From: Elysia marginata
Taxonomy: Eukaryota
Assembly (NCBI GenBank): GCA_019649035.1
Contig: BMAT01003344.1
Location: forward strand, 6,953 to 19,607
DNA: 12,655 nt
Direction: 5' to 3'
Of this stretch, positions 3,380 to 12,655 are shown piece by piece; position 1 is the first letter of the stretch; each line of letters begins with the position of its first letter. The notes beneath the pieces were generated by a model. That model was not told the origin of the DNA and searched no databases. It worked only from the letters and a program-made list of their open reading frames with translations. Both the position numbers and the translations under genes were made by a program.

Positions 3380-4002
3380 GTTTATTGAAGCCGAACACCA
3401 AATCCTCACTAAATACAGAAGATGCCAAATCAAAATTAAGTTTGTCTTCAACGGTCCTCAGTTTGTCAACAAGTGGCAGCAGTTCTGCTTTGTTTTCCTC
3501 CCATGGATCTCTAAATTTACAAAGTTCCAGTTTGCTTCAGCAATATACTTTGAGCAACCCACTCCTAAGCACCTCCTACATTAAAAAAGATTCAACAGGA
3601 AGCTCTGCTCCAAGCAAGTCATCTTTATCTTCCACCCTTTCTCGCCTGACTTTGAAGCCTGAAACATCAAGCAAGAATATCTTTGGTAGTGTGGAAAAAA
3701 AGTATGCAACACCAACCTCAAATATTTCTCAGCGAGCTAGCCCTGCAAAGTCACTGTCTAGGAAGAGGGTGCTAAAAGGTGAAGGGTTAGTCCTGAAAAA
3801 AAAGGTTGTGGAAGGGAAAGATTATGAAGCAACAGCATTGGTGGTTAAACGGCATACTGTCAAACCACCAGATTACACCATCAGAAGTGACCGCGAGGAT
3901 GAATTTAAAATCGTAAACCAGTCAAAGTTTTACGTGGCAACATTAGAAGTGCAATCTAAAACAGGAGTTGGGAAGTCTCTAGCAGATGTTACTGCTATGA
4001 AG
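3380..4002 (+). CDS. TEP1: TEP1-like exon 2. Encodes a long Ser/Thr/Lys-rich low-complexity region (LLKPNTKSSLNTEDAKSKLSLSSTVLSLSTSGSSSALFSS...) followed by ...KDYEATALVVKRHTVKPPDYTIRSDREDEFKIVNQSKFYVATLEVQSKTGVGKSLADVTAMK.
   Basis: Acceptor is ccattttcAG|g at 3378-3379, preceded by a polypyrimidine tract. An open frame of 208 codons in AT-rich DNA runs from there to the donor AAG|GTAAAT at 4003. The frame is phase-compatible with exon 1 and exon 3. Confidence 0.75.
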
Positions 4003-4720
4003 GTAAATCACAAATGAGAAAAGTTTTAAATTGTCTCTCTGTATCATTTTTTTCTTCCATTAATGCTTGACTATAGGGTGTGCAATTTAAGTTATTTAAA
4101 GTAAATAACAAGAGTTTTGACACCATTATTATTGAAATGGTAAATATTACATTAGCTCTTGGGGACACAAACAGACTGCAATAAATAACATACATGAGAG
4201 ATAAAAATTGCAATGCGCTATTCATTACAGAACGAGTGTGCTTCAGTACTACGTGACAAATTACAATGAAATTGCAAAGAATTACATGCTATAAAAAATG
4301 GCATAGGTAACAAAGTACAAGATAAGGGATATAATTGTGGCATTTATGAATTATTGGCTCAAATGGATTTTAGCTTACACATTATTAGAAGAAAAGTTTA
4401 TGTTCTTAATGTTAATAGTTATATATTGCTAATTATTGTATAGATAAGTTCACAGCTTATTTGGTTTTATAAATGTACCTGTATGCCAAAGCAAGAATTT
4501 TATGAAATACAAAAAGTTCAGGTTACACATCTTATAAACATCCGCATTCCAGTACATTTGGGATCTTGCCGCTGATAGTGCACTCAGTTTCCCACCGCTG
4601 CTTTGGAGTTATGATAAAAAGTTGATCATAAATGTTTCTACACACACACAAATTAAGATATCAAACCATTGCTTTTGCTTATAGTTAAAATATAAAAAAA
4701 ACCATTTAAGTTAGCATGTC

Positions 4721-4863
4721 TAAATTCTAATCTGTTTACAATGCATGATCATTTAAAGGACATCAAATGTATATTAATCTCTGACACAGCAAATTTAAAT
4801 TCTAACCTGTTTACAATGCATGATCATTTAAGGGTTATCAAATGTATATTTACCTCTGATACT
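4721..4863. repeat. Tandem duplication, two copies of a ~75-bp unit (taaattctaa[t/c]ctgtttacaatgcatgatcatttaa.gg..atcaaatgtatatt...ctctga.ac), ~93% identical.
   Basis: Direct reading: copy 1 is 4721-4795 and copy 2 is 4796-4863. Lies in intron 2 of the TEP1-like gene. Confidence 0.85.
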
Positions 4864-5528
4864 GATGGATCAAGAGTCAAGCTAGACTCACAAGTATTCA
4901 CCAACATTTTGATTTAAGGTCTGACTGGAGAACTTGGAGAATAAATGAGTTGAGGCTTGATCTAGCTCTCCCTTCTCTCAGTGAGAGAATGAGAATCGAT
5001 TTCTATTTAATTATTACACATAGGAGCAGTACTGTTAACTAAAGGTGAATACCTGTTGCTAGCTTGCCTGCTGGATTGCGAGTGAAACTTAAACTTTCTG
5101 ATCCTAAGTTGATTTTTAAGGCTAAAGTGCTTGTTGAAGCATTGTGGGAAAATGTCTACAATCTCAAATGTTGGGAATTTCCTGGACTGCATAAATGTTA
5201 TCACTTCTTAAAGGGCAGCGTTGCAAGTTACTAACATATCATAGGACATTAAAGAATTACTAACCATGACAATTGTTAACCCCATTTTACAAAGTATTGT
5301 AAAGACAAATATATATTCAAGAAGTCTTATTCCTCTTCTTCAAAGTGGATCCTTGATGGATGTTGCCTCCCTCACAAACTGTTAGAATTTCTGTCCGTCA
5401 TACACTCTTGAACCCTGTATCAGTTGTTATTTTCAGCCTTTCTGCAATATCTTGCTGCCATCATGTTTTAGGTCTTCCCTGGCCCTGCTATGCTCTACTG
5501 CGCCCTCCATGCATAATATCTCTCAATT

Positions 5529-6207
5529 CTAATAAGTCCAGCTGTTTGTCTGGTTTACGAGTTGTCTATTTTCCATGTCAAAGCGTTTTTGAATATTTTT
5601 GTTGCTTTTTTTTAACTGTCCATATAGCTCTAAAAATTTTTGGTAATATTTGATTTCAAAAGCCTGGATTGTTTTTTCATGTTTTTGCAGGAGTCCTTGT
5701 CTTGTAAATGTATGATAAGTGGCAACTGGGAATATACATGACTCTATAATTTTCAGCTTTAGGGGTCCTGATTGACTCTTCCAGAGTATCACCAGTTTCT
5801 TCAACCTGATTATCGCGGTGGCCAATCTTCTTCTGGTCTCTGTCGTATGTTTCACATTTGCGTTGAATTTTGCGCCAAGATAAATGAAGATAATGACATT
5901 CTCGATCTCTTCACTGTCCACCCAAATTTGCAAGCTGGAACTTTATTCAGAAACCGTGATATTGCTTATCTTTGCATGTAGAAAAAGGCCCATTACTTCG
6001 CTGTGTTTTTTCACTGATTGCATTTAGACCATCTGTTGTATAGGACATTAGGACTATGTAGTCTGAATAATGTAGCTCATGGATTTCATGACCATGAATT
6101 TTTATTGAGTCCGATTTCTTCTCTGTTGAGTCCTCCTCAGTCTTTCGCATGGTTGTCTCTGTGTACAAACTGAAAATTGCCAGAGAGAAAATGTCGTTCT
6201 GTTGCAT
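5529..6207 (-). mobile_element. Degenerate non-LTR retrotransposon (LINE, CR1/L2/RTE-like) reverse-transcriptase C-terminal fragment, with frame breaks. Boundaries are uncertain; it may extend to ~5360 and ~6350.
   Basis: Minus-strand ORF 5947..6207 contains YSDYIVLMSYTTDGLNAISEKTQ, a decayed YADD..L.S.T.EGLQ RT motif. Minus-strand ORF 5529..5933 contains FIYLGAKF...RRRLATAI..LKKL..LWKS...L.LKIIESCIFPVATYHTFT...LLQKHEKTIQAFEIKYYQKFLEL. This parallels the conserved LINE ORF2 tail FKYLG...RI..A..AF..L...W.S..L....KI.....V..LLYG.ETWT....KKLE.FH..CLRRIL.I. Located in intron 2 of the TEP1-like gene, antisense to it. Confidence 0.55.
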
Positions 6208-6446
6208 TGCCTTTTTTTATACCTCAGATCAATTGCTTAGGCCCTGTTCTACCTTAAGGCTGCTTGTTGCTCTTTGTATAGATCAAGAATCAAATTTATT
6301 ATTTTATGATGGCATTGAAATACTTGAAGAAATAAATCAGATATAGCTTGAATGATACAGATATGTCTTAATTTCATTTTAAGAAAAGAGTCAAGTATAA
6401 ACTAAATTTATCTGACTTATTTTTCGTTTTTATTTTGTCAACCCAG

Positions 6447-6581
6447 CGTGGCTTTATCAACTGTGTAAGTGGATCTTTAATTGCTCAACCAAACTTGTCT
6501 AACAAAGAAGACCCAACCAGACATCAGCTCTTATATCATGTGGGAACTGTTCAGCACTATGATCCAGAGTTTGTTCTCAAA
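6447..6581 (+). CDS. TEP1: TEP1-like exon 3: RGFINCVSGSLIAQPNLSNKEDPTRHQLLYHVGTVQHYDPEFVLK. This is the start of the TROVE domain.
   Basis: Acceptor tgtcaacccAG|cgt and donor AAA|GTAAGT. The YDPEFVLK ending, followed by VALY.R in the next exon, matches the ...EPEFILKASLYARQ... block of vertebrate TEP1. Confidence 0.8.
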
Positions 6582-11463: not shown

Positions 11464-11554
11464 AGATCAGTTGTGAATAGCAAACAGTTTCCCTTTAGAT
11501 TCTTCTCTGCTTATGTGGCTTTGAATGAGCTAGAGGAAAGTTATGATAAAAATC
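11464..11554 (+). CDS. TEP1: TEP1-like exon 10: RSVVNSKQFPFRFFSAYVALNELEESYDKN, plus a dangling c.
   Basis: Acceptor tttttttccAG|aga and consensus donor c|GTAAGT at 11555. SRQFPFRF is conserved in the TEP1 and Ro60 TROVE domains. Confidence 0.85.
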
Positions 11555-11670
11555 GTAAGTATGATATTGCGTTTTTTGCAAGGTTTCAAATACTTTGTCA
11601 CACATTACATACCACAGGCTAATGCAAACTTAATGCTCCTCCATTTTCACCTCCATCTACTTTTTTTCAC

Positions 11671-11732
11671 TCTTCTTCTTCTTCTTCTCCTCCTCCTCCT
11701 CCTCCTCCTCCTCCTCCTCCTTCTTCTTCTTC
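11671..11732. repeat. Compound trinucleotide microsatellite (CTT)5(CTC)12(CTT)4 in intron 10.
   Basis: Direct reading tcttcttcttcttcttctcctcctcctcc...ttcttcttcttc. The + ORF 11543..11752 (poly-L) is an artefact of it. Confidence 0.95.
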
Positions 11733-11883
11733 ATATGTTTTCTCTATTGTAACTCTGGAAAATTTGTATTATTGCCAATTATTACATCTTGTTTTGAAAT
11801 ACTACTAATTGTTCTGTCTTTCCTCTATATAACCATGAAACAGTATTTTTTTTATTATTATCAACTGTACTTCTTGTCTTGCA

Positions 11884-11998
11884 GAGAGGGACATAATTGA
11901 ATCAGCTTTAGCCAAAGAACAAGGCAGCATAGGCAGAGGCCGATTCAGCAGAGGCAGGGGAACAAGAGGCGGGACTGGACGTTTTGGTGTCACTAGAG
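11884..11998 (+). CDS. TEP1: TEP1-like exon 11, encoding an RGG/RG box. Entering frame: (Q)RDIIESALAKEQGSIGRG. After an apparent +1 frameshift at the CCC run at 11939-11941: RFSRGRGTRGGTGRFGVTRG, plus a dangling g. As written, the entering frame hits TAG at 11994.
   Basis: Strong acceptor tacttcttgtcttgcAG|ag and strong donor AGAg|GTAAAA at 11999. The entering frame is dictated by exon 10 phase. The only frame open through the good donor that continues in phase into exon 12 is +1 relative to it. AGAGGC (Arg-Gly) units occur in the entering frame before 11940 and in the shifted frame after it. Confidence 0.55.
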
Positions 11999-12564
11999 GT
12001 AAAATTGTATATAAACAAGGTTTGACAAAAATTCGAATTAAGAAAAGGGTTTCACATAAAGAGCTAGAAAATACTTTCTTCCTTGAGATGTAGATTGGAG
12101 AAAATATAATATGTTGCTATATCTTTTTTTCACACTGTGCTGAGACATGGCCTACAAAATACACACTCACACCCACAAGGCTATCCTGTGATAAATTTAA
12201 TCCTGTCAGACACTAGGCTAGGCCTGAAGTCTTCTAACATGCTCTGAAACTACACATAGCCTTGAAAGAAGGAACGAAGCAAACAGTGCTATAAAAAAAA
12301 TGCAGTGCATATTGAAAATATTGAAAATGTCTGGGTTGACTTGGTTTGTTCTGGAATACAATGCCAAGATTAAGCGTTCGACTTAAATTAAGAAAAAGTG
12401 CATACCTGGATTGTCCCCCTTGAAAAATTTATTTTGTGAGAATGCTATGGAACATTTGCTCGATTGTATGGATTTTCCAAGTTAAAGAAAGTAAGTTTAG
12501 TTTACTGTACTAATCATTGTCAAATTCATTCTGTTACTCATGGATTTCATAATTTTTTATGCAG

Positions 12565-12655
12565 GTGGAGTTCAGAAACTTTCTAGAGGTGGCAAGAAAG
12601 GAGGACAAACAGAGTGGTGGGTCAGGAAAAAGCTTAAGAAAGAAGGCCAGGATGG
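12565..12655 (+). CDS. TEP1: TEP1-like exon 12 (partial, runs off the window): (G)GVQKLSRGGKKGGQTEWWVRKKLKKEGQDG...
   Basis: Acceptor ttttttatgcAG|gtg. In phase with the shifted frame of exon 11 (g+gt = Gly). Continues the Gly/Arg/Lys-rich composition. No stop before the window end. Confidence 0.65.
   Translation, partial: MEFRNFLEVARKEDKQSGGSGKSLRKKARM

Follow-up and report, generated by a model that had tools for sequence, protein, structure and literature searches.

TEP1 (telomerase protein component 1) is the vault RNA-binding protein of the vault particle, and its TROVE domain is the RNA-binding part of the molecule (PMC7916137). Downstream of TROVE, the described architecture continues with DUF5920, DUF4062 and a STAND NTPase (PMC7916137; bioRxiv 10.64898/2026.05.01.722283), of which DUF4062 is a TIR-like NADase that is active within vaults (bioRxiv 10.64898/2026.05.01.722283), an activity that has lately drawn more attention to TEP1. 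Here we describe a 12,655-nucleotide stretch of contig BMAT01003344.1 from the sea slug Elysia marginata (assembly GCA_019649035.1, positions 6,953 to 19,607 of the forward strand; hereafter the window, numbered from its first nucleotide), which by its sequence is the 5′ third, the first 12 exons, of the TEP1 gene of this species. Its TROVE region is accompanied by three low-complexity tracts, which the original prediction had regarded as lineage-specific modules grafted onto the domain. The comparison with other TEP1 proteins points elsewhere: the tracts are likely to be ancestral disordered or partly helical segments at three length-variable positions of TEP1, probably with an auxiliary RNA-binding or regulatory role. 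The finding is an ordinary one, and its main value lies in the correction, since the apparent lineage grafts appear to be ancient disordered positions of the TEP1 TROVE region in which composition is conserved.

The gene model comprises 12 exons on the plus strand; all introns are GT-AG and the frame is open throughout, giving a 671-residue partial protein that is stopped by the window end. The TROVE domain (Pfam PF05731) covers residues 245–607 (E = 1.7e-99), and the best homologues of the window protein carry the names TEP1 or p80-like. Residues 37–660 are identical to GenBank GFS23870.1 (P0138 in our set, 1542 residues), deposited as “telomerase protein component 1 [Elysia marginata]”, in which DUF5920 (1.7e-12), DUF4062 (1.4e-16) and a STAND NTPase (NPHP3_N/AAA_16) follow downstream, beyond the window. 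The TROVE match, the identity to GFS23870.1 and the TEP1 architecture downstream in that protein together support the assignment of the window, confirming the orthology that had been proposed from the DNA alone. The scallop orthologue carries the TEP1-specific C-terminal WD40 propellers PF25047 and PF25048. Comparisons were made within a set of 263 homologous sequences, in which no close sister species of Elysia was represented. An exhaustive protein search seeded with the oyster (Saccostrea) orthologue P0001 found GFS23870.1; of two word-index searches, the first was dominated by low-complexity words and gave 15 scored matches, and the second, run on the protein stripped of the tracts, yielded short fragments for the most part and did not recover GFS23870.1.

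The Elysia protein and vertebrate TEP1 have the same TROVE blocks, and both continue downstream into DUF5920, DUF4062 and a STAND NTPase (for Elysia, in the deposited protein). Both also have a low-complexity extension at the N-terminus, basic sequence right after YQLAKYN and a basic linker between TROVE and the vWA part. The Elysia protein differs in that the stretch following KYN is Lys-rich, whereas the vertebrate ones are Arg/His/Pro- or Arg/Cys-rich. No acidic-Ser cluster is present in the inserts of Physeter, Monodelphis and Cyprinodon, the three vertebrate inserts displayed in full, and the vertebrate linkers examined have neither an RG tract nor a WW-x-KKK motif. The absence of the RG tract and the acidic-Ser cluster is in line with the earlier view that RGG boxes and Lys-rich tracts with phospho-acidic sequence are not textbook features of vertebrate TEP1. 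The mammalian 30-residue TEP1_N repeats (PMC7916137) are likewise undetectable in Elysia, as neither Pfam TEP1_N nor any other family matched the N-terminus at E ≤ 10. TEP1_N was also unmatched by Pfam in fish, shark and reptile TEP1s, so the repeat does not define the family outside mammals. With Ro60 and bacterial Rsr, the window protein has in common the TROVE ring and the vWA fold, and among solved structures it matches the TROVE proteins 9l5y and 9kop; in the solved chain, however, the two matching blocks are separated by ~47 residues, as compared with ~132 in the window protein.

Relative to the TROVE match, the first of the three tracts is N-terminal, the second is internal (after YQLAKYN) and the third sits at the end of the match or immediately beyond. 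The first, read from translation and composition, is a Ser/Thr/Leu-rich tract at residues 20–135 (window 2479–3678, across intron 1), with 38 Ser, 22 Leu and 12 Thr among its 116 residues. The second joins a K-rich tract at residues 382–416 (window 8333–8437) to the acidic-Ser cluster ESDSSDSEDEND at residues 419–430 (window 8444–8479), and the third is an RG tract at residues 620–655 (window 11932–11998 and 12565–12605). All lie on the plus strand, where the original prediction had put them, apart from small corrections, and all proved to exceed chance in 2000 residue shuffles of the protein that preserved its composition. None of the shuffles reached the 51 S/T per 116 residues of the first tract (shuffle maximum 38), the 11 of 12 S/D/E residues of the acidic-Ser cluster (maximum 10) or the 10 RG/GR dipeptides per 36 residues of the RG tract (maximum 6), and 8 of 2000 reached 14 K per 35 residues. 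Entropy falls below 3.0 bits (25-residue windows) only at residues 1–139, 154–192, 368–416 and 611–670; of these, 154–192 is a K/V-rich stretch within the same N-terminal extension that lies beyond the three named tracts. Synonymous codons are mixed within the tracts, with Ser encoded by TCN and AGY about equally and Arg and Gly by four codons each, and Tandem Repeats Finder detected no repeat in the tract-bearing exons; the tracts are thus neither DNA repeats nor products of recent slippage.

Extensions comparable to the first tract are widespread among animals. S/T/L-rich N-terminal extensions, in which motifs of the SSLL, NPLL or LENRIL type recur, are found for example in bivalves, Patella, amphioxus, echinoderms, a bdelloid rotifer, sharks and bony fishes. 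The combined S, T and L content has a median of 35% in animal TEP1 N-termini (80 homologues) and amounts to 40–60% in the fish sequences P0015 and P0033. Protist homologues are without the extension, and their TROVE domain begins almost at the protein start. The first position may be described, on this comparison, as an animal-wide Ser/Thr/Leu-rich extension ahead of TROVE.

The second position appears to be a loop past the YQLAKYN helix, with a basic head and an acidic tail. The motif FD.YQLAKYN is invariant in our alignment A1, and an insert follows KYN in all 98 homologues in which both anchors were found (median 43.5 residues, range 13–239). In 88 of these 98, from protists to mammals, at least 30% of the first 20 residues past KYN are K or R; examples of such a basic head are Monodelphis LREHRAKKRRRRYRRPK, Physeter PRTHRAKRRPHRPPRPP, sharks, amoebozoan-type sequences and a kinetoplastid. 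An acidic-Ser tail comes after the head in Mizuhopecten (SLFDSDSSDSSDSDSEDE), Saccostrea, Mya, Solemya, Patella and several further invertebrate-type sequences, and the Mizuhopecten peptides homologous to exon 6 read KKKKSLFDSDSSDSSDSDSEDE, followed further on by YDEKE. The exon that bears the loop starts at the same codon in the Saccostrea locus (L001), which also has the exon boundaries at residues 289, 342/343 and 374/375 in common with Elysia.

As had been proposed, the Elysia loop has NLS-like and CK2-like sequence character, where NLS stands for nuclear localization signal. A K-K/R-x-K/R core, the classical monopartite NLS pattern, occurs at residues 384 and 397, a pattern that composition alone predicts in any K-rich tract; the corresponding region of the oyster model is helical. 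In the acidic run, S423 (SDSE) and S425 (SEDE) match the CK2-type consensus S/T-x-x-D/E and are putative sites; for S420 and S422, where position +3 is Ser, phosphorylation would require prior priming. The same loop is, judging by the sequences, a hot spot for domain insertion. The rotifer-type TEP1s P0143 (Brachionus), P0004, P0008, P0051 and P0150 carry a folded-looking insertion of ~200 residues within it, and P0008, one of these insertion-bearing homologues, has a precomputed Pfam match to PF00337 (galectin).

The third position would be the linker that joins the TROVE ring to the vWA part and that in molluscs holds an RG tract and then a WW-x-KKK motif. This succession is present in Saccostrea, Mizuhopecten and Solemya, as well as in Patella genomic DNA (L003:19981–20175), the motif taking the forms NWWIEKKNK, MWWLDKKKNK, NWWLDRKKK and EWWLKKKAK, respectively. 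An RGG box, GRGRGRGRGGGRGGGRGRGRGRGGRGG, occupies the same linker in Branchiostoma floridae, where it is encoded by the exon next downstream of the FPFRF exon (L002:16484–16646) and is in frame in the model XP_078576926. The Patella linker had to be read off the genomic DNA, because the annotation splits the gene.

The RG tract itself is not confined to the linker. It lies in the linker in Elysia, Mizuhopecten, Solemya, Saccostrea, Patella, amphioxus, the amoebozoan Gocevia and one further sequence, in the post-KYN loop in Mya, Patella, Saccostrea and the rotifer Adineta, and at the N-terminus in two other homologues. Among molluscs, the placement is linker-only in Elysia, Mizuhopecten and Solemya (the last with a short RGRG in the loop), loop-only in Mya, and both in Saccostrea and Patella. 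A Tri-RG pattern was found in 12 of 133 TEP1-type homologues, and all six molluscs examined (these same six) have it in at least one loop near the TROVE ring. Monodelphis P0211 gave no Tri-RG match anywhere, and no RG tract was seen in the vertebrate loops and linkers inspected.

Overall, the TEP1-like proteins of other molluscs (Mizuhopecten XP_021378535.1, Solemya KAL5022413.1, the Saccostrea “p80-like” protein, Mya WAR22045.1 and the Patella locus) have the three tracts at the same positions as Elysia and share with it the N-terminal peptide, SDSSDS, YDEK and the RG tract with WW-x-KKK, in addition to the exon boundaries held in common with Saccostrea. They differ from it over the TROVE region, where identity is ~50%, rising to ~70% in the best local Saccostrea match. 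Across the family, sequence comparison indicates that the tracts are old in position and composition, that their exact sequences drift, and that the RG tract moves among the three positions according to lineage.

These distributions bear directly on the view put forward in the original prediction, namely that the Elysia or heterobranch lineage newly gained the modules and with them extra RNA-binding or targeting capacity. The view is favored by some differences: at the positions inspected, no vertebrate TEP1 in the comparison has an RG tract, the three inserts shown in full have no acidic-Ser cluster, the mammalian Pfam TEP1_N repeat is not detected, and our literature search found no paper linking TEP1 to RGG motifs. 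However, the tracts occupy positions that are variable across the TEP1 family, and at these positions Patella, four bivalves, amphioxus, a bdelloid rotifer and an amoebozoan have equivalent tracts. The basic head is a universal feature, and in the oyster the loop exon begins at the same codon. Equivalents of the second tract occur in canonical TEP1s, those of the first largely so, and those of the third within invertebrates. A recent gain is already refuted for the first two tracts, and as an account of all three we regard it as very improbable.

FUS, hnRNP U, nucleolin and LSm4 are RNA-binding proteins with RGG/RG boxes, and the Elysia tract resembles them in being an RG/Gly-rich, presumably disordered stretch beside an RNA-binding domain. 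RGG/RG motifs have reportedly been sorted (Thandapani et al. 2013 is said to be the source) into the classes Tri-RGG, Di-RGG, Tri-RG and Di-RG, with spacers of 0–4 residues. The Elysia tract matches the Tri-RG pattern (three RG, spacers of 0–4 residues) with RGRFSRGRGTRG at residue 621, so that the RGG/RG character noticed earlier is borne out at the level of sequence. It departs from the named proteins in lacking Tri-RGG or Di-RGG spacing and in its length of ~36 residues, interrupted by Phe, Thr and Val. A regular-expression search for Di-RGG and Tri-RGG with spacers of 0–4 residues found no match; three RGG are present, spaced by 7 and 5 residues. The alignment of the tract to the LSm4 tail is a weak, chance-level match (E = 0.89).

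It is conceivable, if doubtful, that the RG tract is a selected accessory RNA-binding element of invertebrate TEP1 and vaults, whose position (N-terminus, post-KYN loop or linker) depends on lineage and which was lost on the vertebrate stem. If true, vault RNA or another RNA would be held differently in molluscs and amphioxus as compared with vertebrates. The retention of the tract by every mollusc examined, at a shifting position, offers a small lead on how TEP1 handles RNA.

Structural evidence comes from an AlphaFold2 model of the Saccostrea orthologue P0001, built on a 56-sequence alignment. The core of the oyster protein has a predicted local distance difference test (pLDDT) score above 90. 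Scores fall below 50 for the N-terminus (residues 1–234), for the loop RG tract together with the acidic part (residues 459–514) and for the linker RG tract (residues 701–707). The K-rich head past KYN (residues 431–450) is predicted as a helix with pLDDT of ~90, and the WW-KKK motif (residues 713–724) as a helix with moderate confidence. Given the confident helix in this model, the basic head probably belongs to the fold, in keeping with its universal conservation; besides the head, the remainder of the tracts is predicted to be disordered.

Basic helices and RG tracts at the rim of an RNA-binding domain usually add non-specific electrostatic contacts to RNA, and CK2-type acidic Ser clusters can neutralise adjacent basic tracts. 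By analogy, the basic helix and the RG tract of Elysia TEP1 would add such contacts beside the TROVE ring and perhaps contribute to nuclear targeting, and the CK2-type acidic-Ser cluster, together with arginine methylation, could tune these RNA contacts. The tracts may have roles of this kind, provided that they behave as RGG/RG boxes, basic tracts and acidic Ser clusters generally do.

A simpler view holds that the tracts are functionally irrelevant low-complexity filler, drifting in surface loops and termini that tolerate any hydrophilic sequence. It would account for the wide range of loop lengths (13–239 residues), the ~200-residue insertion that rotifer-type homologues tolerate, the patchy distribution of the RG tract (12/133 homologues) and a Ser-rich core that does not align beyond its composition. 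It does not readily explain why the basic head, for which a helix is confidently predicted, has been kept all the way from protists to mammals, or why the tract-flanking motifs SDSSDS, YDEK and WW-x-KKK are conserved among molluscs. Moreover, an RG tract is present near the ring in every mollusc examined, although its position differs, and the mixed synonymous codons argue for selection on amino acids over a DNA repeat. We consider neutral filler unlikely and favor ancestral segments with an auxiliary RNA-binding or regulatory role.

Several observations nevertheless weigh against this preferred interpretation. The Ser-rich core (residues 36–150) did not align with any of eleven homologues above composition-matched shuffles (z from −0.5 to 1.8), so that the conservation of the first tract is compositional only; residues 150–243 likewise did not align with the eleven above composition-matched shuffles, and only the first 40 residues align significantly, and against Solemya. 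The RG tract is absent from most homologues, including echinoderms, Priapulus, Tachypleus, Styela and the vertebrates examined, which means that it is not required for TEP1 function in general. The predicted disorder pertains to the model of the oyster orthologue and not to the Elysia protein, and that exons 1, 6, 11 and 12 form part of the mRNA is presumed from homology and from the deposited model.

This last point leads to another explanation, in which one or more of the low-complexity exons are intronic or alternatively spliced and the mature protein is without the corresponding tract. Exon 11 (114 nt, with equal phases at both ends) could be skipped in frame, removing half of the RG tract, and may be a cassette exon; the automatic annotations break at these exons in Elysia, Patella and Branchiostoma. 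On the other hand, the splice sites are all canonical, the frame is open throughout, and loss of exon 6 (194 nt) would put the sequence after it out of frame. The models of other species, RefSeq entries included, contain homologous peptides, and the deposited Elysia model contains all three tracts. An artefact of this kind therefore seems to us a marginal prospect.

The RG region had also been thought to depend on a frameshift. A frameshift was considered here and rejected: exon 10 ends in phase 1, exon 11 measures 114 nt and exon 12 is entered in phase 1, with the junction ...GVTRG|GVQK..., so the phases fit without one and the reading of the third tract does not depend on it. The peptide TRGGGVQ given previously contains one G too many, as the junction yields TRGGVQ.

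The model presented here improves on the deposited one at both ends, by the true exon 1 (2422–2527) and by reading through in exon 12. GFS23870.1 starts at an ATG inside intron 1 (3319) rather than in the conserved exon 1. The exon 1 peptide MSKKQDLHLKNSLLDQWSKSKGSSQGLSG aligns to the N-terminus of Solemya velum, MSFKQERLSLESSLLSKWSLD-SSKYGLSG, with z = 4.5 (0/200 shuffles reach this value), and the donor of the exon is GT, with a phase-1 junction compatible with exon 2; both the phase and the alignment support exon 1. This exon lies outside the range covered by the original prediction. At the other end, GFS23870.1 exits exon 12 early (12620|GTCAGG), thereby losing the beginning of the vWA part, whereas the read-through, which gives EWWVRKKLKK, is supported by the conservation of WW-x-KKK in other molluscs. 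The deposited protein is itself truncated and terminates in retroelement-like (LINE endonuclease-like) sequence.

Similar breaks affect other species. The RefSeq-derived Branchiostoma floridae model P0002 translates the RGG exon in an incorrect frame (WAGTWKRAWRRAWWWAWQG*) and terminates at that point, the gene being split into three, and the newer model XP_078576926 has this exon in the correct frame. In Patella vulgata, the annotation (L003:15522–20175) splits TEP1 within the post-KYN loop. Automatic annotation thus tends to break TEP1 at precisely these low-complexity exons.

The exons, all on the plus strand, are arranged as follows. Exon 1 (2422–2527) begins at the first ATG after an upstream in-frame stop and encodes MSKKQDLHLKNSLLDQWSKSKGSSQGLSGHLTLTS, the conserved TEP1 N-terminal peptide. 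Exon 2 (3380–4002) continues the Ser/Thr/Leu-rich tract to 3678 and then encodes a mixed-charge stretch with a conserved P-x-Y motif (KPPDY, 3862–3876), which lies just upstream of TROVE in a column that is conserved in alignment A1. Exons 3–5 (6447–6581, 6860–7021 and 7959–8055) provide the N-terminal half of the TROVE helical ring, to ...FDEYQL. Exon 6 (8313–8506) opens with the invariant AKYNK and holds the variable loop within TROVE, with the K-rich tract and the acidic-Ser cluster. The TROVE blocks LKQLIRKLHI, PETWETQ, LPFMAMLRNLRN and QFPFRFFSAY are encoded by exons 7–10 (9670–9803, 10027–10184, 11068–11177 and 11464–11554). Exon 11 (11885–11998), which runs from phase 1 to phase 1, encodes the linker helix QRDIIESALAKEQ and, from 11932, the first half of the RG tract, GRGRFSRGRGTRGGTGRFGVTRG. 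Exon 12 (12565–12655) encodes the second half, to 12605, and the EWWVRKKLKK motif (12612–12653), and is stopped by the window end.

Further features of the window lie outside the coding sequence. Upstream of the gene, positions 1–1030 consist of a unit of ~421 bp in ~2.4 tandem copies, with blocks 75–99% identical (most 89–99%), which may be a satellite or a SINE-like element. Rfam and tRNA scans of the window, the 421-bp unit included, gave no match. The proposed start codon (2422) is preceded, at a distance of ~110 bp, by a (CTA/CTG/CTC)n trinucleotide microsatellite of ~47 copies (2171–2312). Intron 2 contains, at 4721–4859 and 5529–6207, a 75-bp unit in 1.9 copies and two antisense open reading frames (134 and 86 residues). 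These reading frames look retroelement-like by eye, but Pfam gave them no support and no PDB match was significant, leaving a decayed retroelement unconfirmed. A (CTT/CTC)n microsatellite is present in intron 10 (11675–11732), and intron 6 has, at 9300–9385, a short GC-rich island amid AT-rich sequence, in which two GACGTC sites lie a few bases apart (GGGACGTCGAATGACGTCTC).

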